A stretch of DNA of 17,452 bases, taken from positions 1 to 17,452 of the forward strand of contig JBCCHT010000081.1 in assembly GCA_039028615.1 (NCBI GenBank), read 5' to 3'. Shown here in pieces: positions 1 through 17,205 of this stretch (its first letter is position 1; every line of letters starts with the position of its first letter). The notes under the pieces are model-generated. The model did no database searches. It worked only from the letters and a program-made list of their open reading frames with translations, and had not been told where the DNA came from. This DNA is from Myxococcota bacterium. Its GTDB lineage: Bacteria > Myxococcota_A > Polyangia > Nannocystales > Nannocystaceae. Made by a program: the position numbers and the translations under genes.

Positions 1-290
1 CGTCGACGACTACGCGCTGCGAAGCTGTCGCAAGGCCATCGACGATTTCCGCGAGCAACACGGCATCGAGGACGAGGTGATGCCCATCGACGACTACTCC
101 GTGTACTGGCGTCGAAGCAAATGAGACGAAGGCCCGAACCGCCTCGATGCGGTCCGGGCCTTCGTCTCATTTGCTTCGACGCCAGTACACGGAGTAGTCG
201 TCGATGGGCATCACCTCGTCCTCGATGCCGTGTTGCTCGCGGAAATCGTCGATGGCCTTGCGACAGCTTCGCAGCGCGTAGTCGTCGACG
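1..290. repeat. Long perfect inverted repeat (arms 1-136 and 155-290) centred on a terminator-like hairpin; the left arm is a mirror copy of the 3' end of the O-methyltransferase gene
   Basis: Base i pairs with base 291-i from 1 to 136. The + strand 2..124 translates VDDYALRSCRKAIDDFREQHGIEDEVMPIDDYSVYWRRSK*, identical to the C-terminus of the ORF at 167..937(-). Confidence 0.95.
125..166 (-). terminator. GC-rich hairpin directly after the O-methyltransferase stop codon
   Basis: Minus strand reads TGA-gacgaaggcccggaccgc-atcgag-gcggttcgggccttcgtc, a stem with one G.U pair. Confidence 0.6.
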
Positions 291-937
291 ATCACAAAGC
301 CCCCGACCGAGAGCTTCGGGTAGAGGTTGGACAGCGAGTCGATGGTGGACTCGTACAGGTCACCATCGAGACGGAGGACCGCGAGGCGCTCGACCGGCGC
401 ATTGGGCAGACTGTCACAGAAGAAGCCCTTGATGAACTGAACCTGGTCATCGAGCAGATCGTAGCGGCGGAAGTGCTCCTTGACCTGATCGACGGACACC
501 GCCAGCACCTTGTTGGCGCGATGCAGGCCCAGCCGGACGTCGAGCGGGTGGGCATCGTCGTCGACGGTCGGAATCCCCTCGAAGGAGTCCGCGACCCACA
601 CGCGTCGATCGGTGATGCCATGAGCGGCCAAGACGGCTCGCATCAGGATGCAGACACCACCTCGCCAGACTCCGGTCTCGATGAGATCGCCGGGGATGTT
701 GTCCTCGATGACCTTCTCTACACACTCGTGCACGTTGTTGAGGCGGGCCAGGCCCACCATCGTGTGGGCAACACTCGGCCAGTCGAGACCGACCTTTCGT
801 TTTTCGGCGTCGTACCCCTTGGGGGCCTTGAACCAAGGAATGTCGACGTGCTCGTAGCCCAGGGGAGTGTCCTGGTAGATCACGTTGGCAAGGATCTTCT
901 TCATGAGATCCAGATACAGATGATTGGGTCGACCCAT
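167..937 (-). CDS. TylF/MycF/NovP-family (macrocin-type) sugar O-methyltransferase
   Basis: Family motifs YLDLMKKIL, DWPSVAHTMVGLARL, PGDLIETGVWRGG, VWVADSFEG, LRLDGDLYEST and GGFVIVDDY; 256 aa. Confidence 0.93.
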   Translation of the reverse strand: MGRPNHLYLDLMKKILANVIYQDTPLGYEHVDIPWFKAPKGYDAEKRKVGLDWPSVAHTMVGLARLNNVHECVEKVIEDNIPGDLIETGVWRGGVCILMRAVLAAHGITDRRVWVADSFEGIPTVDDDAHPLDVRLGLHRANKVLAVSVDQVKEHFRRYDLLDDQVQFIKGFFCDSLPNAPVERLAVLRLDGDLYESTIDSLSNLYPKLSVGGFVIVDDYALRSCRKAIDDFREQHGIEDEVMPIDDYSVYWRRSK

Positions 938-943
938 TCGCCC

Positions 944-986
944 AACCTAGCCGCTTGTGTCGACCGGAAATGCTCACAGTGGTGCA
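944..986 (-). promoter_or_regulatory. Palindromic box (971-986) plus -10-like TAGGTT (949-944); probable leaderless promoter of the O-methyltransferase
   Basis: Minus strand: TGCACC-ACTG-TGAGCA, 21 nt, TAGGTT, 6 nt, ATG at 937. Confidence 0.6.
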
Positions 987-1021
987 CCTTCGGTGAACGT
1001 CCGAAGTCCGGCGCGGGGGCT

Positions 1022-1037
1022 CGCTCACTTGTGAGCA
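1022..1037 (+). promoter_or_regulatory. Palindromic box upstream of 2,3-dehydratase 1
   Basis: CGCTCA-CTTG-TGAGCA, followed 22 nt later by TACGGA (1060-1065). Confidence 0.65.
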
Positions 1038-1075
1038 GTCCGATCGCGGCGGGAAGGTTTACGGATTAAGGGCCG

Positions 1076-2533
1076 ATGACTCTCCCGATCCCGGTTGCCT
1101 CCGAAGCGGACGTCCTCGCTCGACTCGCCCACTCGTCCCAGAGTCCGCAGAGCCCGGTCTGGCCGCTCAGCCGCTTCTTCTCCTGGCTGGTGGAACGCGC
1201 GGCCGCACGAGCGTTCACCGTCGAGCAGATGCCGCTGGCGAAGATGGACCAGTGGTCGACCGATTCCGAGACCGGCAACATCGGCCATCGCTCTGGGCGT
1301 TTCTTCACCATCGAGGGGCTGAAGGTCGAGTCGGACCTTCCGTGGGTGACCAACTGGGTTCAGCCCATCATCGTGCAGCCCGAAGTCGGTGTCCTCGGGA
1401 TACTGATCAAGGAGATCGGCGGCGTCCTGCACTGCCTGATGCACGCCAAGATGGAGCCCGGCAACGTCAACGTCGTGCAGCTGTCACCCACCGTACAGGC
1501 GACGCGCAGCAACTATATGGGTGTGCACGCGGGCGCGGCGGTGCCCTACCTCGACTACTTCCGCCCCAACGGCCGCAGCCGGGTCATCGTGGATGTGCTC
1601 CAGCCCGAGCAGGGCTCGTGGTTCTACCAGAAGAAGAACCGCAACATCGTGGTCGAGACCGATGACGACGTGGAGGTCGGCGAGGACTTCTGCTGGCTGA
1701 CGCTCGGCCAGCTCACCCAGCTTCTGCACTGGGACGACATCGTCAACATGGACACGCGCACCGTGCTGTCGTGCATCCCCTCGGCCGAGGACGTCGACGC
1801 GCGCGGCGAGTCCACGCTACGGGGAGAACCTCGCTCGTTCTCCGAGGAGATCCGCCACTCCTTCGCCGCCCTGCAACGCGGCCACCATACTCTGCGTGAA
1901 GTGCTGGGCTGGCTCTCCGAACAGCGCTCCCGCCGAGTGGTCATCCAACGCCGGGTACCCCTGCGCCAGATCGACGACGGCGGGTGGCGTCGCAGCGACG
2001 AGCTCATCGCGCACGAATCCGGCCGCTACTTCCAGGTCGTCGGCGTAGACGTCGTAGCGGGCGGTCGCGAGGTCGGCTCTTGGCAGCAGCCCCTGCTCGC
2101 GCCGATCGAGACGGGCCTCCTCGCCCTCATCGCACGGCGCGTCGATGGTTTGCTGCACGTGCTGGTCCAGGCGCGGATCGAAGCGGGCTCACCCAACGCG
2201 GTAGAGATGGCCCCGACCGTGCACTGCCAGCCGATCAACTACCAAGACCGACCTCCCGAGGCGCGCCCTCGCTTCCTCGACGCGGTGCTCGACGCTCCGG
2301 CCGAGAGCATCCGCTACGACGTCATCCAGTCCGAAGAAGGCGGCCGCTTTTTCCACGCGCGCAACCGTTGCATGGTGGTGGAGGTCGGCGACGATTTCCC
2401 GCTCGAGGCACCCGACCACTACATGTGGGCAACGCTGGGTCAGCTCAGCGCCTTGCTCAGCCACGGCAGCTACATGAACGTGGAGCTCCGCACCCTGGTG
2501 GCCTGTGCCAAGGCCCTGGGCCAACGCAGTTGA
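1076..2533 (+). CDS. NDP-4-keto-6-deoxyhexose 2,3-dehydratase (EvaA/TylX3/EryBVI family), copy 1
   Basis: HRSGRFFTIEG, QPIIVQPEVGVLG, AKMEPGN, QLSPTVQATRSNY, EQGSWFYQKKNRN, SEEGGRFFHARNR and NVELRTL; two-repeat architecture; 485 aa. Confidence 0.95.
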   Translation: MTLPIPVASEADVLARLAHSSQSPQSPVWPLSRFFSWLVERAAARAFTVEQMPLAKMDQWSTDSETGNIGHRSGRFFTIEGLKVESDLPWVTNWVQPIIVQPEVGVLGILIKEIGGVLHCLMHAKMEPGNVNVVQLSPTVQATRSNYMGVHAGAAVPYLDYFRPNGRSRVIVDVLQPEQGSWFYQKKNRNIVVETDDDVEVGEDFCWLTLGQLTQLLHWDDIVNMDTRTVLSCIPSAEDVDARGESTLRGEPRSFSEEIRHSFAALQRGHHTLREVLGWLSEQRSRRVVIQRRVPLRQIDDGGWRRSDELIAHESGRYFQVVGVDVVAGGREVGSWQQPLLAPIETGLLALIARRVDGLLHVLVQARIEAGSPNAVEMAPTVHCQPINYQDRPPEARPRFLDAVLDAPAESIRYDVIQSEEGGRFFHARNRCMVVEVGDDFPLEAPDHYMWATLGQLSALLSHGSYMNVELRTLVACAKALGQRS

Positions 2534-2552
2534 GCCGACGGCAACGTCGGCT
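2533..2552 (+). terminator. Short hairpin after the dehydratase 1 stop codon
   Basis: agccgacg-GCAA-cgtcggct: 8-bp perfect stem with a GNRA tetraloop and no U-tract. Confidence 0.45.
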
Positions 2553-2579
2553 GACACCGTGACTCGAAGCGACTAGCAT
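2551..2579 (+). promoter_or_regulatory. Sigma70-like promoter of the AlkZ-like gene (leaderless)
   Basis: CTGACA (2551-2556), 17 nt, TAGCAT (2574-2579), 7 nt, ATG at 2587; no Shine-Dalgarno sequence. Confidence 0.6.
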
Positions 2580-2586
2580 CCCCGGC

Positions 2587-3726
2587 ATGAAGGTCTCCGA
2601 ACGAGCCCTCAACCGCGCCCTCCTTGCTCGCCAGGGACTGAGCACGCCCCTGACGCAGCCGGTCGCCGAGGTCGTGACCGCCATCGGCGCGATGCAGGCC
2701 CAGCAGTGGAGCACGATCCCCATCGCGCTGTGGTCTCGCATGAAGAGCTTCGACGCCGCCGACCTTCATGCGGCTTTGGACGCGGGTGATCTCGTCGTCG
2801 GCACTTCGATCCGCCGCACCGTACACCTCGTCAGCGCCCCCGAGCACCCAGCCTACGCCACCGTGGCCGATGCCATGGGCGCCAACGAGTGGCAGCGCGG
2901 CAAGACGGCCCCCTCGAAAAGAGCCGCGCAGCTCCGCAAGAAGCTCCGCACCCATCTCGCCAAGACCAAGACCGCCGCCCAGCTCGTAGACTTCATCGAA
3001 GCCTGGGTGGACGCGAACCCGGGGGTCATCGCGGAGGACGAGCTGACCGAGCAACGAAAGTACAAGTGGCGCCCCTTGTATACGTGGAGTGCCTTGCTTC
3101 GCGCTCCCGCGGACGACGTCTGGTCCGACAAGACTCCCGCGGCCTATCGCGCGGCGAAGGTCATGCCCGGAACCAAGGCCGCGCCCACCGTCGACGACGC
3201 ACTCGAGCAGGTGATCCGCGCCCACCTGCGCGCGTTCGGTCCCGCTGCCCCCGACGACGTCGCCGGCTGGATCGGCTGGAAGGTCACCCCGGTTCGCGCG
3301 GCCATGGAAGCGATGGCCGACGAGTTGGAGACCTTCTCCGACGGCACCAAGCGCACGCTCTACGACCTTGCCGATGCACCGCGACCGGGGCCCGATGCTC
3401 CCGCCCCGCCCCGTCTGCTACCCGCCTTCGACAGCACCCTGCTCGCCTACGCCAACAAACACCGTGGACGCATTCTCCCCGACGAGTACAAGAAGGCGGT
3501 GTACTCGGGCGCCAACCTGCGGGTGAAGCCCACCGTGCTCGTCGACGGGCAGGTCGCCGGGATCTGGTCGACCAAGCTGCAACGTCGCGTCTCGACGCTG
3601 ACCATCGAGGCCTTCGACCGCATCCCGGCCAAGGTCCAACGCAAGCTGGAGTCGGTAGGTGACCAGCTGCTGCGCACGCTCGAGCCCAAGTCCCGCGAGT
3701 ACGAGGTGGTGTTCGCTCAGTCTTGA
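2587..3726 (+). CDS. HTH_42 winged-helix protein, AlkZ-like DNA glycosylase (crosslink/adduct repair; candidate self-resistance)
   Basis: LNRALLARQGL start, GAMQAQ (QxQ motif), RRTVHLV, HLRAFGPA..DDVAGWIG, RLLPAFDSTLL and PTVLVDGQVAGIW; 379 aa. Confidence 0.88.
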   Translation: MKVSERALNRALLARQGLSTPLTQPVAEVVTAIGAMQAQQWSTIPIALWSRMKSFDAADLHAALDAGDLVVGTSIRRTVHLVSAPEHPAYATVADAMGANEWQRGKTAPSKRAAQLRKKLRTHLAKTKTAAQLVDFIEAWVDANPGVIAEDELTEQRKYKWRPLYTWSALLRAPADDVWSDKTPAAYRAAKVMPGTKAAPTVDDALEQVIRAHLRAFGPAAPDDVAGWIGWKVTPVRAAMEAMADELETFSDGTKRTLYDLADAPRPGPDAPAPPRLLPAFDSTLLAYANKHRGRILPDEYKKAVYSGANLRVKPTVLVDGQVAGIWSTKLQRRVSTLTIEAFDRIPAKVQRKLESVGDQLLRTLEPKSREYEVVFAQS

Positions 3727-3757
3727 GCAGCACCCCTGCCTCGCGCCGCCCTAGGCT
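3714..3757 (+). promoter_or_regulatory. Palindromic box (3714-3729) plus -10-like TAGGCT (3752-3757) for the glycosyltransferase
   Basis: CGCTCA-GTCT-TGAGCA, 22 nt, TAGGCT. The box overlaps the stop codon of the AlkZ-like gene. Confidence 0.65.
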
Positions 3758-3793
3758 ACTGCCGCTGGCCGAGCCGTACGGCCAGATCGGCCG

Positions 3794-4987
3794 ATGCGAG
3801 CGCTATTTACCTCGATCCCCACCAGTGGCCACGTTCACCCCCTGCTCCCGCTCGCCGATGCGCTGCGCGAAGCGGGGCACGAGGTCGCCTTTGCGTGCGC
3901 GCCTTCGCTGCGCCCTTCGGTTGCGGCCTACGGGTTCGAGAGCTTCGGCGTGAGCCTCAACCGCGACGGTGATGGCAACGCGGAGTTCGATGCGCTCAAG
4001 AAGAAGGCACGCGCCCTCAAACCCGGGTTCGAGCTCGACAAGCTCGGCATCGCGGATGTGATCTACGGGGTCCGAACGCGGCAGATGCTCCCCGGGCTGC
4101 TCGAGGTCGGCAAGTCCTTCGCTCCCGATCTATTCGTCCACGAGTGCTTCGAGGCCGGGGCTGCGATCGTCGGCGACCGCCTCGGCATTCCCCACGTCAG
4201 CGTGGACATCATGCCGCTGTTCGATCGACAGCCCATGCAGTCGGCAATCGACGCCGAGCTGGCGCGCGCGCGCGCGATGGTCGACTTGCCCCCCGATCCC
4301 GAGATGCTCACCCGGGGTCTGGTGCTGAGCTTCGTCCCCCCGGGACTCCTCGATCCCGAGCTCCCTCGCCCCGAGCACCTCGAGCTGCTGCGACCGACGT
4401 TCTTCGATCGGTCGGGCGACGAAGGGCTGCCCGCGTGGTTCGAAAACCGCCCGGACCGTCCGCTCGTGTACGTCACCGTGGGCACCGTGGCCAACCGCTG
4501 GCGCTCCGATGCGGGGTCCTTGATGCAGACCATCATCGACGGCCTCCGCGACGAGCCGATCGAAGTCGTCGCCACCATCGGCCGTGAGGGCAACCCGGAG
4601 GACCTCGGTCCGCAGCCCGACAACGTCCACATCGAGCGCTATATCCCGCAGTCGCTCCTGCTGCCGCACTGTGACGTCTGTGTCAGCCACGCGGGCTTCA
4701 GCACGCTCTTGAGCTCGATCGACAACGGGATCCCTCAGCTGCTCGTGCCGCAGCTCGTCGACGATCCATTCAATGCCGCGCGGTGCCAGGCGGTGGGCAT
4801 CGGACTGAACGAAGATCCGAGCACGCTCACCTCCGATCGCGTGCGCACGGCGGCGCGTCGCCTCCTCGACGAGCCGAGCTTCCGCCGCGAGGCCCAGGCC
4901 ATGCAAACGCAGATGCACGAGCTGCCGGGGCTCGATCACGCCGTGCGGCGCCTCGAGTCACTCGCGGCGACCGGCTCCCTCGGGTGA
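3794..4987 (+). CDS. GT1 (GT-B fold) natural-product glycosyltransferase, EryCIII/MGT-like
   Basis: MRALFTSIPTSGHVHPLLPLADALREAGHEVAFA, RPLVYVTVGT, NVHIERYIPQSLLLPHCD, HAGFST and GIPQLLVPQLVDDPFNA; 397 aa. Confidence 0.93.
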   Translation: MRALFTSIPTSGHVHPLLPLADALREAGHEVAFACAPSLRPSVAAYGFESFGVSLNRDGDGNAEFDALKKKARALKPGFELDKLGIADVIYGVRTRQMLPGLLEVGKSFAPDLFVHECFEAGAAIVGDRLGIPHVSVDIMPLFDRQPMQSAIDAELARARAMVDLPPDPEMLTRGLVLSFVPPGLLDPELPRPEHLELLRPTFFDRSGDEGLPAWFENRPDRPLVYVTVGTVANRWRSDAGSLMQTIIDGLRDEPIEVVATIGREGNPEDLGPQPDNVHIERYIPQSLLLPHCDVCVSHAGFSTLLSSIDNGIPQLLVPQLVDDPFNAARCQAVGIGLNEDPSTLTSDRVRTAARRLLDEPSFRREAQAMQTQMHELPGLDHAVRRLESLAATGSLG

Positions 4988-5001
4988 CTCCAGGCCGAGT
5001 G

Positions 5002-5045
5002 CGCTCACTAGTGGGCAGTGGCGGACCCCCGCGGTGGTGTGTGGT
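5002..5045 (+). promoter_or_regulatory. Palindromic box (5002-5017) plus weak -10 TGTGGT (5040-5045)
   Basis: CGCTCA-CTAG-TGGGCA, 22 nt, TGTGGT, 6 nt, ATG at 5052. Confidence 0.55.
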
Positions 5046-5051
5046 CGACCC

Positions 5052-5939
5052 ATGGCCACTCCTGCTTCCCACGACGAGCTCGGCCCGGCGCTTCGCCCCG
5101 CGTCGGCTCAGCTGTCGAACCCCGACGCATCGATCCTTCACTCCGCCAACTGCGGCCTCATCGTCCACCGGGTAGGGCGCATCTGTGAGGCGTTCCGCGG
5201 CGAGGCCCGAGACTTCGCCCGTACCTTGCAAGGGCACGTCAACGACGCCCTCGGGTCGACCGCCACCACCCTGCTCTACGACGAGCTGCTCGGCGACGAG
5301 CATCGATTCCACTGGTTCGTGCACCTGCGCAAGCCCAACGACTATGTGCACTTCATCCACATGTCCGACGACGACGAGGACGTGCGCGAGCTCGTGGAGT
5401 CCGACCGGCTCGAGCACAAGGGCGGCGGGAACTGGGATCGCATGTTCGAGGAAGGCAGCTTCCGAGAGACGATCATGGTCCCTCAGCACGGCCTGGTCCC
5501 CGCCCAGGTCGACTCGGAGGAGCTGTTCGTACCGGCGGGGCGCCACCAGACGACCCAGACCGACGACCAGCTCGTCCACAGCGCGAACGCAGCCATCGTC
5601 GTGCGGCGAACGGCTCGGGTCCGCTTTCGTTTTCGCGAGCAAGGCCGTCGCCTCGGTCATCGCTGGGCGGAGGGACTCAACCGCGCCCATGCCGGAGATC
5701 TGACCGCCCTGCTCTACGAAGAGACCTGGGGTCGACAAGACCGTCTCCACTGGCTGATCCATTTGCGCTCCTTCGAATGCCTCGAGCGCCTCGTGCGTCA
5801 CCCCGGGCCCAGCCTCGCCGATGCCCCCGAGGGCAATGAGCGAAGCGACGAACGGTGGAGCCACATGTTCGTGGACGGCAGCTTCTCCGACACGATCTTG
5901 GTGCCTCACTTCGAGGGACGCGGCCTCCATTGGCCGTAG
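5052..5939 (+). CDS. Unknown-function two-repeat protein (DUF6039-like), paralog A
   Basis: Two repeats of HSAN..IV.R...F...R.......LLY.E..G...R.HW..HLR...W..MF..GSF..TI.VP.H; clearly homologous to the next ORF. ATG 5052 is preferred over GTG 5034. The DUF6039 name is from recall and unverified. Confidence 0.75.
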   Translation: MATPASHDELGPALRPASAQLSNPDASILHSANCGLIVHRVGRICEAFRGEARDFARTLQGHVNDALGSTATTLLYDELLGDEHRFHWFVHLRKPNDYVHFIHMSDDDEDVRELVESDRLEHKGGGNWDRMFEEGSFRETIMVPQHGLVPAQVDSEELFVPAGRHQTTQTDDQLVHSANAAIVVRRTARVRFRFREQGRRLGHRWAEGLNRAHAGDLTALLYEETWGRQDRLHWLIHLRSFECLERLVRHPGPSLADAPEGNERSDERWSHMFVDGSFSDTILVPHFEGRGLHWP

Positions 5940-5945
5940 GCTCAG

Positions 5946-5961
5946 GTCTCAATACTGAGCG
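5946..5961 (+). promoter_or_regulatory. Degenerate palindromic box upstream of paralog B
   Basis: GTCTCA-ATAC-TGAGCG, 21 nt, TAAGTC (5983-5988), 8 nt, ATG at 5997. Confidence 0.5.
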
Positions 5962-5996
5962 GTCGTTTCCGGGGCTCGCTGATAAGTCCGTGTTCC

Positions 5997-6935
5997 ATGA
6001 GCGAAGCCTCGACCGACAACGTCATCAGCGAAACGCCCACCGCGGAGCAGCAGACCGAAGTCGCCCCGTCGGACCTGCTGAACTCCGCGAACTGCGGGGT
6101 CATCGTCGAGCGTGTGGCCGACATCAAGAGTGAGATGCGTTCCGAGGGCCGGACCTTCGCCCGCAACTTGGCCACGTACATCAACGAGACGCAAAAGGGC
6201 ATCGCCAGCGTGTTCGTGTACGAGGAGACCTTCGGCAAGAAAGACCGCATCCACTGGATGATTCACATGCGCTCGCTGCGAGACTACGAGCGCATGCTGA
6301 CCATGGGTACGCACGACGAGAAGTACCGCAACATCTTCACGCAGCAGGTCATCCCCGAGCACAAGGGCGGTGGCACCTGGGACCGGATCTTCATCGACGG
6401 CAGCATGCGAGAGTCGGTCATCATGCCGCAGTTTTGGGGCATGTACGGCACCGCCGCCACGCTTCGCGATGGTCGCCCTTCGATGTTCGAGGAGGGCCTC
6501 GAGACCGTGCTACCCGCGGCTCACCATCAGTGTGACCTGCCCCAGGAGAAGATCCTCCACTCGGGGAACTGCGGCGCGATCATTCACCGCAGCGCCCAGC
6601 TGGCCTACGAGTTCCGCTCCGAGGGCCGCCAGTTCGCTCGCGAGGCTCTCGATGCGATCAACGAGAAGGGCGGCGAGGTCACCGGCTTCCTCTACGAGGA
6701 AGCGTTCGGCGAGGCCGACCGCATCCACTGGTTGCTCCACATGAAGAGCGTGTCGTCCTACTACTGGCTGATCCGCATGCACGCGATGGAAGAGAAGGTT
6801 CGCGACATCTTCTTCCGCGACCGCATCCCGGCCGAGCGCGGCGGCGGCAACTGGTCGCGAATGTTCGTGCCGGGGAGCATGGTCGACGTCTGCCTCACGC
6901 CCCAGCACTGGGGCATGTACGCCACCAAGAAGTAA
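5997..6935 (+). CDS. Unknown-function two-repeat protein (DUF6039-like), paralog B
   Basis: Paired repeat motifs LNSANCG/LHSGNCG, RSEGRTFAR/RSEGRQFAR, YEETFGKKDRIHW/YEEAFGEADRIHW, GGGTWDRIF/GGGNWSRMF and PQFWGMY/PQHWGMY; 312 aa. Confidence 0.8.
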   Translation: MSEASTDNVISETPTAEQQTEVAPSDLLNSANCGVIVERVADIKSEMRSEGRTFARNLATYINETQKGIASVFVYEETFGKKDRIHWMIHMRSLRDYERMLTMGTHDEKYRNIFTQQVIPEHKGGGTWDRIFIDGSMRESVIMPQFWGMYGTAATLRDGRPSMFEEGLETVLPAAHHQCDLPQEKILHSGNCGAIIHRSAQLAYEFRSEGRQFAREALDAINEKGGEVTGFLYEEAFGEADRIHWLLHMKSVSSYYWLIRMHAMEEKVRDIFFRDRIPAERGGGNWSRMFVPGSMVDVCLTPQHWGMYATKK

Positions 6936-6958
6936 CCCCTCACGACGGACGGCCTCCC

Positions 6959-8176: not shown

Positions 8177-8207
8177 GCCCGGTCGGCATCGCCGACCACC
8201 GAACCAC

Positions 8208-8245
8208 GAAAAAGCGACCGTCTCCATCGAGACGGTCGCTTTTTC
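8208..8245. terminator. Bidirectional intrinsic terminator between the convergent P450 and C-methyltransferase genes
   Basis: gaaaaagcgaccgtctc-catc-gagacggtcgctttttc: 17-bp perfect inverted repeat with A5/T5 tracts. Confidence 0.85.
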
Positions 8246-8263
8246 CGTTGCCAGGGTTGCCAG

Positions 8264-8306
8264 CGACGATGAGGGCCCGAGGGAGCTCCCCCGGGCCTTC
8301 GTCGTC
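8264..8306. terminator. Second hairpin directly after the C-methyltransferase stop codon
   Basis: gacgatgagggcccgaggg-agct-cccccgggccttcgtcgtc; shares the GACGAAGGCCCG arm with the hairpin at 125-166. Confidence 0.5.
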
Positions 8307-9540
8307 AGGCGCTTCGACGCGTTCGATGCATGACCAGCTCGGGGAGCGGGACGACGTGGCCCTTGGCGATCTTGCTCCGCTCGATGATGGCCTCCGAGAA
8401 GTTCCAGGACAGGATGAACACGACGTCGTTCGCATCGAGCTCGTCCATGCCCACCACCTTCAGGTCCACCCCCGGGATGTACATGCCTTGCTTGCCCTCG
8501 GTCTCGTCGATGACGTGATCCAAGAAGCTGCTGTCCAGGCCGCAGTAGTTGAGCGCGATGCAGCCCTTCGCACCTGCTCCGAAGCCGACGAGTCGTTCAC
8601 CGTCGGCCTTGAGCTGAGTGAGGAAGCGGCGCACGTTGGCCCGAAAATTCGCGGCCTGGGTGCCGAAGCCTTGGTAGCGCTCGAAGCTATAGAAGCCGCC
8701 CTCCTCCTCCGAGGCGATCATCTTCGCCACCGAGGGCTTGATCTCGTGCTTGCCCTCATGGCCGACGAACATCCGCAGGGAGCCGCCGTAGACCGACGTC
8801 TTCTCGACGTCGTAGACCATCATGCCGTGCTTGCGGAACAGCGTGTCGGCCGAGTGCAGCAGCCAGTACGAGGGATGCTCGTGGTGCACCGTGTCGAAGA
8901 GGGTGCCGTTGATGAGGTCGACGTGGTGGGGCGCCTCGACGATGCAGGTGCCGTCCTCGGCGAGCACCACCTTCAGCCCGGCCACGAATTCGCGGATGTT
9001 CGCGACATGCCCGAACACCTGGGTCGCGGTGACGATCTTGGCCTTGCCGAAGCTGCTCACGATGCCGTCGGCGATGGCCGGGGTCCAGTACTCGTTGATC
9101 GTCGAGATCCCCTTGGTCTTGGCCAGCTCGATCAAGTTGGTGGCCGGATCGACGCCGACCTTGACGACCTCGTAGGGAGAGAACTGATCGAGCGGGCCCC
9201 CATCGTTGCATGCGATGTCGACCACGACATCCCCTCGTTTCATCCCCAGTCGCTCCGACGCGATCGATGCGAGTTCCTGGAAGTGCTCGAGGTTCGGCTT
9301 CGACACCGACGACTCCCAGGGAAAGTCCCGGAACATCAGGTCCGGGTTCACATCGACCGTCAGCTGCGACAGGTGACACCCCTTGCAATACGCGAGCTCC
9401 AACTTGAAGCGCCGAACATCGTTGCCGGGAGCAGACTGAAAATCGTCCGGCAGGGGCATATCCCCGAGATCGAAGTACGGCACGATTTCGCTACCGCAAA
9501 CCTTGCAAGACGTTCGCGTGACACAGTCTGGTTTCTTCAT
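8305..9540 (-). CDS. SAM-dependent NDP-hexose C-methyltransferase (TylC3/EryBIII/NovU family)
   Basis: Zn motif CKVC...CKGC, DLGDMPL, DIACNDG, GVDPA, HHEHPSY, GGSLRMF, FGAGAKG and ILSWNF. Start placed at ATG 9540 (MKKPDC); 411 aa. Confidence 0.92.
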   Translation of the reverse strand: MKKPDCVTRTSCKVCGSEIVPYFDLGDMPLPDDFQSAPGNDVRRFKLELAYCKGCHLSQLTVDVNPDLMFRDFPWESSVSKPNLEHFQELASIASERLGMKRGDVVVDIACNDGGPLDQFSPYEVVKVGVDPATNLIELAKTKGISTINEYWTPAIADGIVSSFGKAKIVTATQVFGHVANIREFVAGLKVVLAEDGTCIVEAPHHVDLINGTLFDTVHHEHPSYWLLHSADTLFRKHGMMVYDVEKTSVYGGSLRMFVGHEGKHEIKPSVAKMIASEEEGGFYSFERYQGFGTQAANFRANVRRFLTQLKADGERLVGFGAGAKGCIALNYCGLDSSFLDHVIDETEGKQGMYIPGVDLKVVGMDELDANDVVFILSWNFSEAIIERSKIAKGHVVPLPELVMHRTRRSA

Positions 9541-9556
9541 GGTCTTCTCGGCCTCA

Positions 9557-9600
9557 AACCTAGCCAGGGTCTCGCCGTGACTACTGCTCACGAGTGAGCA
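9557..9600 (-). promoter_or_regulatory. Palindromic box (9585-9600) plus -10-like TAGGTT (9562-9557) for the C-methyltransferase
   Basis: TGCTCAC-GA-GTGAGCA perfect palindrome, 22 nt from TAGGTT on the minus strand. Confidence 0.7.
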
Positions 9601-9638
9601 CCACTTCTGCGGGACGGCGAAACCGGACTGCACTCTCC

Positions 9639-9681
9639 TGCTCATCATTGAGCAGCTCCCATGACCATGGCTGACTACCGT
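9639..9681 (+). promoter_or_regulatory. Palindromic box (9639-9654) plus -10-like TACCGT (9676-9681) for the dehydratase 2 operon
   Basis: TGCTCA-TCAT-TGAGCA, 21 nt, TACCGT, 6 nt, in-frame GTG at 9688. Confidence 0.7.
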
Positions 9682-11073
9682 GCCGCGGTGGAGTCGAGGG
9701 ACCGCAGCTCTTCCGCGCCTGCCTCGCGACCGCGACCGGATCGCGCGATCATCTCTTGGCTGATCGAGCGCTCCGCCAGCCAGAACCATCGCGTCGAGCG
9801 AGTGCCACTATCCGCTCTCCAGGGATGGTCGACCAAGCCCGGCGACGGAGACCTCGTGCACCAGTCCGGTCGCTTCTTTGCGATCCGGGGGGTGAGGGTC
9901 GACGCCGGCCCGCAGCAGTGGACCCAGCCGATCATCGTGCAGCCGGAGGTCGGCCTGTCGGGCATGGTCGTGCGGCGCTTCGATAGCGTGATGCACTGCC
10001 TGGTTCGCGCCAAGATGGAGCCCGGCAACATCAACTACGTACAGCTGTCGCCCACGGTCCAGGCGACCCGGAGCAACTACACCCGCGCCCACCGGGGCTC
10101 GGCCGTTCCCTACCTCGAGTACTTCCAGGACACCGATCCTCGGCACGTGCTCGTCGATGCCCTGCACACGGAGCAAGGCTCGTGGTTTCTGGCCAAGAAC
10201 AACCGGAACATGGTCGTCGAAGTCGACCGCGACATCCCGGTCGAAGAGGATCACGCGTGGCTCTCCGTCTCGAGCCTACAGTCCCTGCTGCGCTCGGACG
10301 ACATCCTCAACATGAGCACGCGAACGCTGCTGGCGTGCATGGGCGCAGCTGGCTTCGTGGAGCGCATGCCCCGTGGTCCACAGACCTCGCTGTCTCGCCC
10401 GGTTCATGACTCCTTCCTCGCTCAGAGCGGCCACCACTCTCTCGACCGAGTGCGGGCGTGGCTGGACCAGCGACGAAAGGAACGCGCGGCGACCAGCGAG
10501 GTCGTGCCCCTGCGGCAGATCACGAACGAAGGCTGGAACCTCGGCGCCGAGTCGATTCGTCACGAACGAGGGCGCTACTTCCAAGTGGTGGGCATCGATG
10601 TCTCGGCCACCGGGCGCGAGGTCCGGTCGTGGCAGCAGCCGATCATCGCCCCCACCGACACGGGCCTCGTCGCCTTCGTCGCTCGGCGCATCGATGGCTT
10701 GTTGCACGTGCTGGTCCAGGCTCGGGTCGAGGCCGGTGCCGCCGCGGGAGCCCACATCGCTCCGACCGTGCAGTGCGTGCCCGGCAACTACGAGCATCTC
10801 CCCGCCGATCAGCGCCCGCGCTATCTCGATGTCGTGCGAGAGGCTCCCGCGAGCCGACGCCACTACGATGCCATGCAGTCGGAGGAAGGCGGCCGGCTGT
10901 TCCATGCTCGCAACCGCTACCGGGTGGTCGAGGTCGACGACGGCTTCTCGCTCGACACCCCACCCGACTACCAGTGGGTCACCCTCGGGCAGCTCGATGC
11001 CCTGCTCGTGCCCGGTGGAAATCTCGACATCGAACTGAGGAGCTTGATGGCATGCACTCGAACTCTCGCGTAG
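9661..11073 (+). CDS. NDP-hexose 2,3-dehydratase, copy 2 (true start may be GTG 9688)
   Basis: HQSGRFFAIRG, QPIIVQPEVG, AKMEPGN, QLSPTVQATRSNY, EQGSWFLAKNNRN, SEEGGRLFHARNR and DIELRSL. Confidence 0.94.
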   Translation: MTMADYRAAVESRDRSSSAPASRPRPDRAIISWLIERSASQNHRVERVPLSALQGWSTKPGDGDLVHQSGRFFAIRGVRVDAGPQQWTQPIIVQPEVGLSGMVVRRFDSVMHCLVRAKMEPGNINYVQLSPTVQATRSNYTRAHRGSAVPYLEYFQDTDPRHVLVDALHTEQGSWFLAKNNRNMVVEVDRDIPVEEDHAWLSVSSLQSLLRSDDILNMSTRTLLACMGAAGFVERMPRGPQTSLSRPVHDSFLAQSGHHSLDRVRAWLDQRRKERAATSEVVPLRQITNEGWNLGAESIRHERGRYFQVVGIDVSATGREVRSWQQPIIAPTDTGLVAFVARRIDGLLHVLVQARVEAGAAAGAHIAPTVQCVPGNYEHLPADQRPRYLDVVREAPASRRHYDAMQSEEGGRLFHARNRYRVVEVDDGFSLDTPPDYQWVTLGQLDALLVPGGNLDIELRSLMACTRTLA

Positions 11074-12044
11074 GCGCCTCCCTCCGGTTCGGCATCCTGG
11101 GCTGCGCCGACATTGCGTGGCGGCGCATGCTTCCCGCCCTCGCGGCCCATCCCTCCACCACCGTCACCGCGCACGCATCACGGTCGACCGACAAAGCACG
11201 GAAGTTCGCCGAGCGCTTCGGCGGCACCCCATGCACGGGCTACCAGGCCCTGCTCGAGCGCTCCGATGTGGACGCGGTGTACATCCCGCTCCCCAACTCA
11301 CACCACTACGAGTGGGCCGCTCGAGCGCTACGGGCGAGCAAGCACGTACTGTGTGAAAAGCCGCTCACCACCGACGCCCGCCAGACCGAGGAGCTGCTCG
11401 AGCTGTCCGAGCGCCACGGCGTCTCGCTGATGGAAAACTACGCGTTCGAGTTCCACTCGATGCACGCCCGCGCCCGAGAACTCGTCGACCAAGGAGCCGT
11501 GGGCGAGCTCCGGCACTTCTCGAGTGCGTTCACCGTCCCGCGTCGCCCCGAGGGCGACATCCGCCTCCGTCACGATCTCGGGGGAGGGGCCATGCTCGAC
11601 GCCGCGGGTTACCCCCTGCGGGCCGCCCTTCACCTGCTGGGACCCATCGAGATTCTCGACGTCGTCCCGCAGCAAAGCGGCGAGATCGACGTCGCGGGCA
11701 CCGTATTGGCGAGGACACCTTCGAATGTCTCGGTCACCCTGACCTACGGCCTCGACCACTTCTATCGGGCCGACTACGTGTTCCACGGCAGCACCGGTCG
11801 GCTCTCGCTGGACCGAGTGTTCACCGCGCCCGCCGACTTCGAGCCGACGCTGCGGCTGAGCACCCGCAACGGGCATCAGGAGCTGACCCTCGCGGCCGAC
11901 GACCAAGTTCGACACATGCTGACCGCATTCGTGGCGTCGGCCAGCGCAGCCCGTGACGCCCAGCGCCGGGCCACGACATCCCTGCACGCCCGCCTACTCG
12001 ACGACATCCGAGCCCAACGAGCCCTCCGGGAGATTGAGCAATGA
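11052..12044 (+). CDS. Gfo/Idh/MocA-family oxidoreductase, probable NDP-hexose 3-ketoreductase (KijD10/SpnN/OleW type)
   Basis: LRFGILGCADIAWRRMLPAL, DAVYIPLPNSHH, KHVLCEKPL and GGGAMLDAAGYP. GAGGAG Shine-Dalgarno at 11037-11042 precedes ATG 11052; 330 aa. Confidence 0.92.
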   Translation: MHSNSRVGASLRFGILGCADIAWRRMLPALAAHPSTTVTAHASRSTDKARKFAERFGGTPCTGYQALLERSDVDAVYIPLPNSHHYEWAARALRASKHVLCEKPLTTDARQTEELLELSERHGVSLMENYAFEFHSMHARARELVDQGAVGELRHFSSAFTVPRRPEGDIRLRHDLGGGAMLDAAGYPLRAALHLLGPIEILDVVPQQSGEIDVAGTVLARTPSNVSVTLTYGLDHFYRADYVFHGSTGRLSLDRVFTAPADFEPTLRLSTRNGHQELTLAADDQVRHMLTAFVASASAARDAQRRATTSLHARLLDDIRAQRALREIEQ

Positions 12045-12646
12045 ACTTCAAACCGATGACGCTGGCCGGGGGTTATCTCATCGACCCCAAGATCTTCCAC
12101 GACGACCGCGGGGAATTCTACGAGGTGCTGCGACCCGCACGCCTCGAAGAGGCCACCGGGTATCGCTTCACCGCGCAGCAGTTCAGCTTCTCTCGGTCGC
12201 ACCGCAACATTCTCCGCGGCATCCATACGACTCGGGTTCCGCCTGGCCAGGCCAAGGTCGTTTCTTGTGCCCACGGCTCCATCTTGACCGCCACCGTCGA
12301 TCTGCGGGTGGGCTCGCCCACCTTCGGCCAATTCGAGCTCACCCCTCAGGATGCCGAGTCCGGCGTCTCCGTGGTCCTCACCGATGGCCTCGGGCACGCG
12401 TTCCTGGTGCTCTCGGACACCGCCGTCGTCTCCTATCTCGCGTCCAAGGAGTACCAGCCCGGCACCATGATCGAGATCGACGCCCTCGATCCCGCGCTCG
12501 GCATCGAGTGGCCGCTCCAGGGCGAACCGATCCGCTCGCCCAAGGATGCCGCCGCGCCCACTGCCGACGAAGCCGCTGCATCCGGCATTCTGCCGACCTA
12601 CGAGCAGTGCCTCCGCTCCGCCGTCATCCCGGAGAAGTCGTCATGA
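12041..12646 (+). CDS. dTDP-4-keto-6-deoxyhexose (3,)5-epimerase, RmlC/EvaD family
   Basis: FHDDRGEFYE, SHRNILRGIH, GQAKVVSC, VDLRVGSPTFG, GLGHAF, DPALGIEWP and SPKD; ATGA overlap with the upstream gene. Confidence 0.95.
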   Translation: MNFKPMTLAGGYLIDPKIFHDDRGEFYEVLRPARLEEATGYRFTAQQFSFSRSHRNILRGIHTTRVPPGQAKVVSCAHGSILTATVDLRVGSPTFGQFELTPQDAESGVSVVLTDGLGHAFLVLSDTAVVSYLASKEYQPGTMIEIDALDPALGIEWPLQGEPIRSPKDAAAPTADEAAASGILPTYEQCLRSAVIPEKSS

Positions 12647-13767
12647 TCCCGTTGTTCAAGGTCTCCACGTCTCCCCGCGCCGCCGACCTCGTCGCCGAAG
12701 TCCTGGAGAGCGGATACTTGGGGGAAGGCCCCAAGGTCGAAGCGTTCGAAGCCGAGCTGGCCAAGCACTTCGGCACCCCCCGCGTCGCCACCGTCAACAG
12801 TGCGACCTCGGGCATCCACCTCGTGTTGCACATGCTGCGCGAGGAGGCACGAGGCCCCGGCGACCGCAACGAGGTGCTCTCGACGCCGCTGACCTTCCCC
12901 TCGTCCAACTGGCCCGTGCTCCTCAACGGGTTTCGTCTGAAATGGGTCGACGTCGACCCGGCGACCCTCAATGTCGATCTCGACGACGTCGCTCGCAAGA
13001 TCACCGAACGCACCCGGGCCATCGTCGTCGTCCACTGGGGCGGCTATCCCATCGACATGGCCCGCCTCGACGCCATACTCGACGAAGCCGAGGCGCTTCA
13101 CGGACACCGCCCCGTCGTCCTCGAGGACTGCGCCCACGCGATGGGTTCCACCTACCACGGCGAGATCGTCGGGACGCACGGCAACCCCTCCGTCTTCAGC
13201 TTCCAGGCGGTCAAGCACCTCAACACCGCCGATGGCGGCATGCTCATCCTCCCCGACGACGAGATGTGGCGTCGCGCTCGACGGCTTCGCTGGCTCGGCT
13301 TCGACCGCGATGGCACCGAGCGTTTCCGTAGCGAGCTGAACATCGAAGAATACGGCTTCAAGTTCCACATGAACGACGTCGCCGCCGCGATGGGCCTGGC
13401 CAACCTCGACATCGTCGACGGCAACATCCGCCGACACAAACACAATGCCGCCCGCTACGACCAAGCCCTCGGCGACGTGGCGGGTCTACAGCTCACCGAG
13501 CGACGCGAAGGCTTCGAGTCTTCGTTCTGGCTCTACTCCATCCTCGTCGACGATCGGCCTGGCTTCATGCGGCGTATGAACGAGGCGGGCATCCACGTCA
13601 GCCAGGTCCAGCGTCGCAACGATCTGCATACTTGTGTCACTGACGTTCGTTCGCAGCTCCCCGGCCTCGACAGCGTCGCCGACCGCATGGTCGCGATCCC
13701 CGTCGGATGGTGGCTGAAAGACGAAGACGTCGACTACGTCGTGGAGACGATACGCGGCGGCTGGTAG
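12643..13767 (+). CDS. DegT/DnrJ/EryC1/StrS PLP-dependent sugar aminotransferase, likely C4-type (AtmS13-like)
   Basis: MIPLFKV start, GPKVEAFE, NSATSG, VHWGGYP, EDCAHA, SFQAVKHL (PLP Lys) and IPVGWWL; ATGA overlap; 374 aa. Confidence 0.94.
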   Translation: MIPLFKVSTSPRAADLVAEVLESGYLGEGPKVEAFEAELAKHFGTPRVATVNSATSGIHLVLHMLREEARGPGDRNEVLSTPLTFPSSNWPVLLNGFRLKWVDVDPATLNVDLDDVARKITERTRAIVVVHWGGYPIDMARLDAILDEAEALHGHRPVVLEDCAHAMGSTYHGEIVGTHGNPSVFSFQAVKHLNTADGGMLILPDDEMWRRARRLRWLGFDRDGTERFRSELNIEEYGFKFHMNDVAAAMGLANLDIVDGNIRRHKHNAARYDQALGDVAGLQLTERREGFESSFWLYSILVDDRPGFMRRMNEAGIHVSQVQRRNDLHTCVTDVRSQLPGLDSVADRMVAIPVGWWLKDEDVDYVVETIRGGW

Positions 13768-13788
13768 CGCCCCCGGGCCCAAGGCGCG

Positions 13789-15537: not shown

Positions 15538-15685
15538 GAGGCGCCACGAGTCTACCGTGGGCGCGGGCGAGGCGCTCCTCGGAGCCGCGGAAAATCGACC
15601 GCGCGCGCAATCCATTCGAGGTGCGCCCGGACTTCTCGGTCACCGCTGGCCGGCCCATGTCGCGGCCACGCTCGAGGACGAACCG

Positions 15686-16369: not shown

Positions 16370-16443
16370 GCCACGAGTGGATTTCACGACATGGCGACAC
16401 CCTCGGAGCTTCCACGGGGCGCCGCTCTCCCGGCCTCGGGCCG

Positions 16444-17094: not shown

Positions 17095-17205
17095 GGGTGG
17101 TTAGTACCAAATGCTGCGGCGAGCCGACGTCTCGCGGCCACACGCCGTTTCACCGGGCCTCTGCGGGGGTTCACGTCGGCGAGTCTGCTGTACGATGGCT
17201 CGGCA

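Follow-up and report, generated by a model that had tools for sequence, protein, structure and literature searches.

A candidate tailoring and self-protection cassette of a leinamycin-type biosynthetic cluster in a marine myxobacterial genome

The leinamycin (LNM) family comprises a few antitumour antibiotics whose sulfur chemistry is unusual and which have so far been described from actinomycetes. Its founding member alkylates DNA. The family is understood here as defined in PMC7618002 and PMC9396626; in the accessible text of PMC7618002, weishanmycin A1 carries a thiopyran, and some members are without the dithiolane. A motif rule for AlkZ-family proteins, the AZL motif (Q/H)-x-Q, is given in the accessible part of PMC9040887, and Tables S2, S3 and S5 of that paper (2022) place an AZL gene within a leinamycin-like cluster of Streptomyces leeuwenhoekii C34, where it adjoins a glycosyltransferase (GT) and deoxysugar genes. 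Cassettes of AlkZ, GT and deoxysugar genes do already exist in LNM-type clusters of actinomycete genomes.

The window, by which we mean the whole stretch of DNA analysed, is the entire contig C81 (JBCCHT010000081.1, 17,452 nt) of a genome binned from a marine metagenome. We consider it very likely that the window is the tailoring and self-protection half of an LNM-type cluster of about 70 kb. The core of this cluster would lie on contig C26 of the same assembly, and its predicted product is a thiazole macrolactam that bears sulfur, is glycosylated with an aminodeoxysugar and is likely to alkylate DNA.

Genes of the window and the core on contig C26

The genes listed in the preliminary description are all in place as intact ORFs and, as it had noted, PKS, NRPS, RmlA, RmlB and regulator genes are absent from the window (none among the 15 ORFs scanned). 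On the minus strand are a TylF/NovP/MycF-type sugar O-methyltransferase (167..937; PF05711, E 1e-103; NovP, E 2.5e-91) and a sugar 3-C-methyltransferase of the D-mycarose C-MT/TcaB9 type (8305..9540); the other listed genes are on the plus strand. These begin with an EvaA-like NDP-hexose 2,3-dehydratase (copy 1, 1076..2533), an AlkZ-family DNA glycosylase (2587..3726; PF06224, E 4e-63) and a GT1 glycosyltransferase (3794..4987), which matches CalG1 and a forosamyltransferase and falls in a clade of 12 rows that includes GTs of actinobacterial LNM-type clusters (support 99). Two DUF6039 proteins follow (copy a, 5052..5939; copy b, 5997..6935), and then a cytochrome P450 (6959..8176) with 64-66% identity to a P450 encoded in both of the glycosylated actinobacterial LNM-type clusters mapped here. 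The remaining sugar genes encode a second 2,3-dehydratase (9661..11073; 53% identical to copy 1), a GFO-family sugar 3-ketoreductase (11052..12044; E 1e-90), a dTDP-sugar 3,5-(5-)epimerase (12041..12646) and a DegT sugar aminotransferase (12643..13767), which is CalS13-like (E 1e-136 and 1e-127; next match 2e-51). We take CalS13 to be a C-4 type aminotransferase, and the C-4 call for this gene follows that assignment.

Outside the window, C26 carries a complete LNM-type NRPS/trans-AT PKS, judged by domain and motif content. It is loaded by an A-T protein with the Thr code DFWNVGMVHK, accompanied by a SyrB2-type halogenase (HQA motif) and a hydrolase-fold protein with a Cys nucleophile. The LnmI-like protein reads PCP-Cy-Cy-A-PCP-Ox-KS0-ACP-KS-KR-ACP-KS, and the LnmJ-like protein DH-ACP-KR / KS-ECH-ACP / KS-DH-KR-ACP / KS-DH-ACP / KS-ACP-ACP-DUF-SH-TE. 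The eight-module layout is recovered as the loading A-T, one NRPS module (Cy-Cy-A-PCP-Ox) and seven KSs, the first of which is without the catalytic His, with a discrete AT of the FabD-PfaD type. The codes of the A domains were located by motif and compared with specificity tables, which assign the loading code presumably to Thr and DLFNFSLVWK presumably to the Cys type. The terminal module is recognised from Pfam KS, ACP, LPG_synthase_C (DUF), Beta_elim_lyase and abhydrolase domains, with the PLP-lysine and G-x-S-x-G motifs present and the second ACP seen by motif only. The LnmJ-type gene is followed by the LnmK-LnmL-LnmM genes for β-branching at C3 (LnmK: TIGR04098 at 257 bits, the cut-off being 100; LnmK structures, E 2e-89). 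Further genes encode a second HMGS/ACP/KS/ECH β-branching set, AT-ER, TEII, a P450 with ferredoxin, an ABC exporter and an LnmO-type Crp/Fnr regulator (cNMP and HTH_Crp_2 domains). In a quick IQ-TREE analysis of 33 rows, the DUF-SH of C26 lies on a long branch within a clade of 27 rows that holds all of the actinobacterial ones (SH-aLRT 97); on this tree it appears deep-branching, and groups with the LNM-type domains and not with other DUF-SH PKSs.

The two DUF6039 genes, whose products the preliminary description had left as unknown proteins, are the only copies in the genome, neither being on C26. Exactly two copies are found in all 18 actinobacterial DUF-SH (LNM-type) genomes examined, sharing a contig with DUF-SH in 15 of them, and none in the seven non-actinobacterial DUF-SH genomes. 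By gene position in related clusters and by the lnm gene order, and not by an alignment, the two are taken as an accessory pair of the LnmE/LnmH type. The structural model of copy b (pLDDT 88.8) is predicted to be a tandem ferredoxin-like fold (dimeric α+β barrel), resembling putative monooxygenases and sulfur oxygenase reductase (Z 15.9, 15.5 and 15.4; rmsd 3.1-3.4 over 200-216 residues, at 6-9% identity).

Predicted product and self-resistance

From these genes, the product is predicted to be a thiazole macrolactam with a 4-chloro-Thr starter, a sulfur group at C3 and one 4-amino-2,4,6-trideoxy sugar, which is possibly C- and O-methylated. As in largimycin, L-Thr would be chlorinated at C4 before its transfer to the NRPS, and Cys would be cyclised and oxidised to the thiazole. 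The chain would then grow by six malonyl extensions, gaining an exomethylene branch at C9 and, at C3, one derived from propionyl. The DUF-SH would place a thiocysteine-derived persulfide on C3 and the TE would close the ring, to a macrolactam rather than an oxime ester because no LrgO-type oxime enzyme was seen. Sulfur maturation and a hydroxylation would fall to the DUF6039 pair and the two P450s, the P450 of the window being a candidate maker of the hydroxyl that is glycosylated. The host RmlA and RmlB, encoded on contig C65 of the same genome, would supply dTDP-4-keto-6-deoxyglucose, which the 2,3-dehydratase, 3-ketoreductase, 3-C-methyltransferase, epimerase and C-4 aminotransferase would convert to a 4-amino-2,4,6-trideoxy-L-hexose; the GT would attach it and the TylF-type enzyme O-methylate it. 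The Crp/Fnr protein would turn on both halves through the sequence GCTCA-N4-TGAGC, and the producer would be protected by the exporter and by excision of N7-guanine adducts by the AZL glycosylase. More tentatively, it is possible that the compound is a new, deep-lineage marine myxobacterial alkylator of the LNM family: a thiazole macrolactam primed with chloro- or epoxy-Thr and carrying a 4-amino-3-C-methyl-3-O-methyl-2,4,6-trideoxy-L-hexose, with sulfur maturation by an oxygenase-like DUF6039 pair, and with an AZL glycosylase specific to its guanine adduct as defence.

The glycosylase is predicted to provide self-resistance. Aligned to AlkZ (5uuj), it has Q-A-Q at the AZL motif. It is 45-47% identical to cluster-embedded copies in the Kitasatospora cluster described below and in the actinobacterial genomes G020 and G1063, although it does not group with these copies; AlkZ itself is distant (E 2e-12), and among its named near relatives (about 50%) are MAG proteins from Solirubrobacteraceae and Thermoleophilaceae. 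The same cluster might instead make a product that is no DNA alkylator, being for instance a thioether or S-methylated as in weishanmycin or guangnanmycin, with the AlkZ protein a general-repair passenger. The sulfur group does vary among family members, many relatives at about 50% have no known cluster context, and an AlkZ gene stands beside the cluster in just one of the 18 actinobacterial LNM-type genomes (G020), so that the enzyme is dispensable for the family. We regard this reading as rather unlikely. The motif and the position within a cluster match the pattern in the accessible text of PMC9040887; AlkZ and GT genes are also neighbours in Kitasatospora, G1063, S. leeuwenhoekii and M. 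tulbaghiae; and the two other full-length HTH_42 genes of the genome are very distant, one of them having Q-x-D. A GnmP-like methyltransferase was not identified here, whereas an additional Methyltransf_11 gene is present in the Kitasatospora cluster, and an epoxide derived from chloro-Thr is a possible second electrophile.

The proposed glycoside also has to account for two 2,3-dehydratases alongside one GT, a count that speaks against it. The Kitasatospora dehydratase is 50% identical to copy 1 and 45% to copy 2. The locus could be a recently patched or decaying mosaic, in which the second sugar operon (C-methyltransferase, dehydratase 2, ketoreductase, epimerase and aminotransferase) was acquired separately and is uncoupled, the strain making the aglycone, a simpler glycoside or nothing. 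The duplicated dehydratase would fit this, as would an aminotransferase only 29-31% identical to the Kitasatospora and G1063 cassette enzymes. We think it improbable, given that every reading frame is intact, that the second operon has two exact copies of the putative operator, and that the 4-amino sugar enzyme set is complete, with no 4-ketoreductase needed.

Physical linkage and host

The preliminary description placed the core beyond a broken left contig end. The end is indeed broken: bases 1..145 are a 99% inverted repeat of 146-290 with a 0-nt spacer, a fold-back assembly artefact and not genomic sequence, and in run X1, a possible but not certain source sample of the assembly, a unitig begins at position 155. 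A hairpin at 125..166 with an 18-bp stem (-22.2 kcal/mol as DNA, z -7.7), a probable terminator between convergent genes and the point of the assembly break, lies after the O-methyltransferase gene. C26 opens with the same hairpin (30-71), which at up to four mismatches occurs in the genome only on these two contigs. Positions 1-71 of C26 match 125-195 of the window at 59 of 71 sites, and the 3' end of the O-methyltransferase gene recurs in degraded form over the opening 32 nt of C26 (22/32, p about 1e-6). The X1 unitigs end within the hairpin from both sides, 8 nt apart, and read depth is alike (19 on C81, 18-18.9 on C26).

The suggested promoter box proved real. The sequence GCTCA-N4-TGAGC occurs exactly between the divergent O-methyltransferase and dehydratase 1 genes (1023..1036), upstream of the GT (3715..3728) and twice (9586-9599 and 9640-9653) in the divergent C-methyltransferase/sugar operon region (9586..9653), and with one mismatch upstream of DUF6039 copies a (5003..5016) and b (5947..5960). 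There are four exact boxes in C81, five in C26:1-56,700 and 15 in the remaining 12.2 Mb; the rest-of-genome rate predicts 0.017 in the window, odds which are indicative only because the pattern was generalised after the matches were seen. Between two and nine exact boxes are carried by seven of the eight actinobacterial LNM-type regions counted, and the two closest glycosylated clusters (Kitasatospora and G1063) have one-mismatch sites and no exact ones. The box is likely to be the site of the LnmO-like Crp/Fnr regulator of C26.

Taken together, there is strong indirect support for C81 and C26 being one physical locus. It is very improbable that C81 lies apart from C26, serving another core elsewhere or one absent from the assembly. 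Neither a contig nor a read bridges the hairpin, and its two copies differ by one mismatch; against this stand the unique hairpin common to both contig ends, the degraded read-through into the O-methyltransferase end, the equal depth and common operator box, and the complementary content (the DUF6039 pair and second P450 on C81, the regulator and core on C26). The cassette was wrongly called an orphan, because its missing parts sit elsewhere in the same assembly, the core on C26 and RmlA/RmlB on C65. With the same box and the same hairpin, the NRPS/trans-AT PKS of C26 bears out a core beyond the left end, and as the adjacent, box-sharing core it takes the place of the enediyne, type II PKS and indolocarbazole cores that had been suggested. 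The genotoxic product proposed in the preliminary description is in keeping with a family founded on a DNA alkylator and with an AZL-type (Q-x-Q) glycosylase in the cluster.

A myxobacterium-like host is confirmed by 65 MYXO-CTERM matches, against none in 14 control genomes. Misbinning of both contigs as actinomycete DNA, which the actinobacterial named closest relatives and the metagenomic origin of the bin might suggest, is largely refuted and hardly credible: a single X1 unitig (155-17157) links the cassette to an AgmX/PglI-type gene, 150 kb of host-like genes follow on C26, the tetranucleotide distance falls between the 62nd and 91st percentiles of 449 windows from the host (six actinomycete loci being at 97-99.8), and bin contamination is just 1.83%.

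Comparison with described clusters

The largimycin cluster lrg (Streptomyces argillaceus; accessible text of PMC9396626 and PMC13200230), compared by description and not by alignment, has a similar discrete Thr loading unit with halogenase and transfer proteins, LnmKLM downstream of the LnmJ-type gene, a second HMGS, ACP, decarboxylating KS and ECH1, ECH2 in module 5, a tandem ACP in module 8 and several P450s. Assignment to the largimycin subgroup was rejected: the annotated cluster ORFs include no LrgO-type FAD oxidoreductase, a macrolactam being predicted where lrg makes an oxime ester, and the NRPS A code DLFNFSLVWK looks to be of the Cys type (thiazole), whereas lrg has an oxazole. Sugar genes are not mentioned for lrg in the accessible text.

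With lnm, gnm and wsm (accessible text of PMC7618002, PMC8479088 and PMC9570651) the cluster shares the eight-module NRPS/trans-AT PKS ending in KS-ACP-ACP-DUF-SH-TE, an LnmK family protein and a Crp/Fnr regulator, and with wsm also two HMGSs and an in-cis ECH in module 5. It differs in its predicted chloro-Thr starter (D-Ala in LNM), its myxobacterial host and its MacAB-type ABC exporter, and the products described in those texts carry no sugar. The glycosylase resembles the AZL enzymes AlkZ and HedH4 (PF06224, Q-x-Q, cluster of a DNA-alkylator family); an AZL assay on an LNM-type adduct was not found in the accessible part of PMC9040887.

An intact pathway in a Gram-negative myxobacterium widens the range of the family, and the sugar set would give it a glycoside not found in the literature searched. 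If the proposal is true, the LNM family would gain its first glycoside, its first representative from a myxobacterium and its first case of self-resistance by DNA repair, as far as that literature shows. The analysis also flags a subgroup of clusters from culturable actinomycetes that combines AlkZ-GT-P450 with deoxysugar genes and makes glycosylation and AlkZ-type resistance directly testable, and offers three reusable markers: the DUF6039 pair as a hallmark, its predicted oxygenase-like fold and the candidate Crp/Fnr activator operator.

The closest parallels are the glycosylated actinomycete clusters. An intact one is on plasmid NZ_CP108290.1 of Kitasatospora sp. NBC_00039, where AlkZ-GT, 2,3-dehydratase, epimerase and aminotransferase genes adjoin the same core, and G1063 carries the same gene set split over two contigs. 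The claim that the pathway was undescribed holds only in part: a cassette of this kind was already tabulated for S. leeuwenhoekii (PMC9040887), although a characterised product was not found in the literature searched. In all three, the gene right after AlkZ encodes an orthologous GT (47-49% identity), with a 2,3-dehydratase, epimerase, aminotransferase, extra P450 (64-66%), halogenase loading unit and core. The two mapped cassettes, Kitasatospora and G1063, use a 3-amino sugar set, and Kitasatospora has a QdtB/C-3 type aminotransferase, an NAD-dependent reductase and an acyltransferase; the present locus instead has the CalS13-type C-4 enzyme, a 3-ketoreductase, a 3-C-methyltransferase, an O-methyltransferase and two dehydratases. 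Its gene order is rearranged, and the cluster is without its own RmlA/RmlB, which S. leeuwenhoekii has. What is new in relation to these clusters is the myxobacterial host, the deep-branching DUF-SH and the sugar set.

The leinamycin-type core and its probable join to the window

The preliminary description read the window as an orphan tailoring cassette of a genotoxic glycoside pathway, with its core lying beyond the broken left contig end. All twelve of the genes it named are present and intact, from an O-methyltransferase (167-937, minus strand) to an aminotransferase (12643-13767), and its statement that PKS/NRPS, RmlA/RmlB and regulator genes are missing holds for the 15 ORFs scanned in the window; its two unknown proteins are DUF6039 proteins. 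The orphan reading is rejected, since C26, another contig of the same assembly, carries a leinamycin (LNM)-type NRPS/trans-AT PKS core. The cassette is very probably half of an intact leinamycin-type cluster, and the proposal taken as a whole is likely.

The window is all of contig C81 in an assembly of 12.27 Mb (94 contigs, 96.7% complete, 1.8% contaminated), sequence of which is present in a marine metagenome run. Window bases 1-145 duplicate 146-290 by fold-back, the turn lying inside an 18-bp hairpin just past the O-methyltransferase stop. BLASTN of the left window end against the host genome gave a single other match, the first 71 bases of C26, whose sequence agrees at 59 of 71 bases with window 125-195 read on the opposite strand. 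The hairpin is unique to C81 and C26 in the genome, allowing up to 4 mismatches. The first 32 bases of C26 are a degraded O-methyltransferase 3' end (22/32, p about 1e-6), and we infer that this fits a read losing quality past a strong hairpin. In the metagenome run, one unitig spans window 155-17157 at a depth of 19 and other unitigs cover C26 from base 50 at depths of 18, 18.9 and 18.2, with the unitig ends 8 bases apart within the hairpin. No public contig bridges the join, and the run may itself be the source sample. It is very likely that the window adjoins C26 as one locus.

An inverted-repeat signal is also found at the ends of host contigs C47, C52, C73 and C91, which suggests more hairpin-caused breaks in this assembly. 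The right end of the window (17181-17452) is an 18-nt tandem repeat, coding for a histone-like protein rich in KKKTAA, and is the likely cause of the contig break there. It is preceded by two host-type genes outside the cluster, a lipoprotein-like ORF with three Cys-rich repeats (15671-16369, plus strand) and a protein whose AgmX/PglI C-terminal domain scores below cut-off (16444-17094, minus strand).

C26 encodes, in this order, a MacAB-type ABC exporter with its permease at C26:84-1253, cupin, AT-ER, ECH, HMGS, ferredoxin, P450 and SDR, followed by a hydrolase-fold protein (G-x-C-x-G), a halogenase with an HQA motif that scores above cut-off for TIGR01762, and an A-T didomain with the code DFWNVGMVHK. 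Next come a protein of 4262 aa, PCP-Cy-Cy-A-PCP-Ox-KS-ACP-KS-KR-ACP-KS, with the A code DLFNFSLVWK and a first KS that lacks a catalytic His, and a protein of approximately 6340 aa with a C-terminal KS-ACP-ACP-DUF-SH-TE and an ECH in module 5. These are followed by LnmK (TIGR04098 above cut-off), ACP, HMGS, ACP, a FabF-like KS, TEII and a Crp/Fnr regulator, and lastly by an acyl-CoA ligase, DUF3224 and a SnoaL-like protein, the cluster ending near C26:55,900. Substrates of the A domains are predicted from the known code tables. LNM-type systems are defined in PMC7618002 by eight modules and a KS-ACP-ACP-DUF-SH-TE terminal module. The largimycin cluster (PMC9396626) has two beta-branching sets and a Thr-loading, halogenating and transfer trio, as on C26.

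The DUF6039 pair and the shared putative operator

A DUF-SH-TE query retrieved 25 genomes, 18 actinobacterial and 7 others. DUF6039 is encoded by exactly two genes in all 18 of the former and is absent from all 7 of the latter; 15 of the 18 have one copy or both on the same contig as DUF-SH, at a distance of about 23-65 kb. The host has only two copies in its genome, both in the window. The gene order on a Kitasatospora plasmid is DUF6039-HMGS-ECH-AT-DUF6039, and in the largimycin cluster lrgE adjoins lrgM2 and lrgF adjoins lrgG (PMC9396626), an order which suggests that the pair is LnmE/LnmH.

The DUF6039 model (pLDDT 88.8) has a tandem ferredoxin-like fold, and its closest structures are putative monooxygenases and sulfur oxygenase reductase (Z 15.4-15.9, rmsd 3.1-3.4, 200-216 residues, <10% identity). 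The predicted oxygenase-like fold is a lead only, a fold match showing no function. A His-x3-His motif was considered as a sulfur oxygenase reductase iron site and rejected, because it is on a predicted strand. A Streptomyces xanthii plasmid (NZ_CP061282.1) has a P450-ferredoxin-YciI-hydrolase-DUF6039-ECH-AT-DUF6039-NRPS/PKS run, adjoining a type II PKS; the run follows the lnmA-J order. DUF-SH-containing PKSs without DUF6039 are found in Bacillota and Acidobacteriota (loci L018-L020, L023, L025, L028 and L029), genome G024 having three copies.

The exact box GCTCA-N4-TGAGC, a putative operator, occurs 24 times in the genome, with 15 sites elsewhere, 4 in C81 and 5 in C26:1-56,700, where 0.017 and 0.07 respectively are expected, the pattern and limits having been chosen after the data were seen. 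The narrower pattern used first, GCTCAC-NN-GTGAGC, was dropped as it misses the C26 sites. Sites on the further contigs C35 and C36 are inside or between unrelated genes. The exact box is found 2-9 times in 7 of the 8 actinobacterial LNM-type regions counted, and is absent from the regions of Kitasatospora and Streptomyces genome G1063. Every LNM-type cluster compared whose region is complete has a Crp/Fnr gene, and LnmO is listed as the Crp/Fnr activator of leinamycin (PMC7105598). The box is a candidate LnmO-type Crp/Fnr site.

A 582-aa ORF (13789-15537, minus strand), convergent with the aminotransferase, has an N-terminal half predicted by structure to be a PhyH-like Fe/2OG dioxygenase and a C-terminal half with no family. 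Lacking a box and unmatched in 4 same-family genomes, it was kept outside the cluster; it may be a further tailoring enzyme or have nothing to do with the pathway.

Predicted sugar and AlkZ function

The best solved relative of both 2,3-dehydratases is EvaA, that of the GFO-family reductase is a sugar 3-ketoreductase and that of the C-methyltransferase is the D-mycarose 3-C-methyltransferase; those of the O-methyltransferase are NovP and MycF, and those of the glycosyltransferase (GT) are CalG1 and a forosamyltransferase. The aminotransferase best matches two 'putative aminotransferase' entries and CalS13 (E 1e-136 to 1e-127); CalS13 acts at C-4. This enzyme set, with no 4-ketoreductase in the window, would fit one 4-amino-2,4,6-trideoxy-L-hexose, which may carry 3-C- and O-methyl groups. 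This scheme gives no role to the second dehydratase; copy 1 is closer to the Kitasatospora enzyme (50%, vs 45% for copy 2), which would fit an older cassette and a newer operon. RmlA and RmlB, both above cut-off, are together on contig C65 near polysaccharide-export-type genes, and could supply the sugar precursor. In the plasmid search the aminotransferase had no match and the C-methyltransferase had only 32-36% matches, among the best 15 of 35 records.

By the AZL motif rule (PMC9040887), which concerns AlkZ-like self-resistance glycosylases, the window AlkZ has the motif Q-A-Q. Leinamycin alkylates guanine N7 via an episulfonium ion (PMC9570651), and this adduct is of the lesion class acted on by AZL-type enzymes. 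It counts against a firm resistance claim that the window AlkZ clusters with the M. tulbaghiae protein and others without a name, apart from the Kitasatospora, G1063 and G020 copies, that many relatives at approximately 50% have no known gene context, and that AlkZ is beside the LNM-type cluster in only 1 of 18 actinobacterial genomes. Both the cluster product and the resistance role of AlkZ are predictions. The AlkZ of genome G020 (G020:C6:121975-123099, or L067:11975-13099) has Q-S-Q and 45% identity to the window protein, and adjoins a Crp/Fnr gene in an LNM-type cluster without sugar genes. The host has two further very divergent HTH_42 genes, at C7:196000-196995, with a Q-x-D (YQL-type) motif, and C12:74249-75244.

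Host range, origin and comparison with known clusters

MYXO-CTERM matches number 65 in the host assembly vs 0 in 14 control genomes. Mis-binning is disfavoured by the host-like composition of the cluster (62nd-91st percentile of 449 host windows; actinomycete loci are at 97-99.8) and by the single unitig joining the cassette to a myxobacterial-type gene. DUF6039 is found in none of 400 other genomes of a phylum sample. Among 60 relatives (5 of the same genus), 24 match the SH-like part only, at 27-36% identity, with the DUF part covered by none and no DUF-plus-SH match. The cluster is therefore sporadic in the phylum and probably acquired. In a quick DUF-SH tree of 33 rows (L029 dropped as too short), the host groups with the actinobacterial rows (97), to all of which it is the sister (85), and its branch is long; it is a distinct lineage. 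DUF6039 homologues (P0096 cluster, P0110) occur in Burkholderia cepacia-complex species, Verminephrobacter and a Myxococcaceae MAG, and may mark LNM-type clusters outside actinomycetes. No claim is made that the present cluster is the first outside actinomycetes.

No glycosylated LNM-family compound was found in the literature covered, which lay largely outside subscription journals. Nor was a myxobacterial LNM-type cluster, though Pan 2017 and PMC8479088, whose main supplement lists 109 DUF-SH clusters, may show glycosylated or non-actinobacterial ones. The comparison also drew on PMC13200230, PMC9230918, PMC8597713, PMC13014233 and PMC7930024. No 2,3-dehydratase is near DUF-SH in any of the 25 genomes, many of these assemblies being fragmented, and no sugar genes are in the LNM-type regions of G589, G627, G473, G496, G729, G725, G008 and G020. 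The halogenase loading unit recurs, without sugar genes, in four clusters belonging to the G008 family. Four near-syntenic LNM-type clusters (L039-L063, in G589, G627, G473 and G496) have the chloro-Thr loading code DFWSVGMVHK, no sugar genes and 5-9 exact boxes each.

In a FastTree GT tree of 28 rows, the window GT is in a 12-row clade (support 99) whose named members are from M. tulbaghiae, S. sanyensis, S. hygroscopicus, S. leeuwenhoekii and the S. diastaticus group; the M. tulbaghiae link is based on neighbouring accession numbers together with a single sentence of PMC5765111. In S. leeuwenhoekii the AZL gene is tabulated inside a leinamycin-like cluster, with the clade GT, a thymidylyltransferase, a 4,6-dehydratase and a 2,3-dehydratase as neighbours (PMC9040887, tables S2, S3 and S5). 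Kitasatospora plasmid NZ_CP108290.1 (L080/L079, 533860-608573) has a complete, unbroken and uncharacterised LNM-type cluster, with an epimerase, aminotransferase, reductase, acyltransferase and 2,3-dehydratase as sugar genes and the GT directly after AlkZ. Its identities to the window are 50% for the dehydratase, 47% for AlkZ, 48% for the GT and 64% for the P450, whereas its aminotransferase is QdtB-like and that of the window CalS13-like. The GT was found in 1 of 401 Streptomyces genomes, G1063, which has the same genes split over two contigs. A glycosylated, AlkZ-bearing LNM type therefore already exists in actinomycete genomes, and the Kitasatospora plasmid cluster offers a culturable model for this subgroup. 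What is new here relative to the known clusters is the host group, the deep-branching lineage and a sugar set that differs from those of the two mapped actinomycete counterparts, Kitasatospora and G1063.
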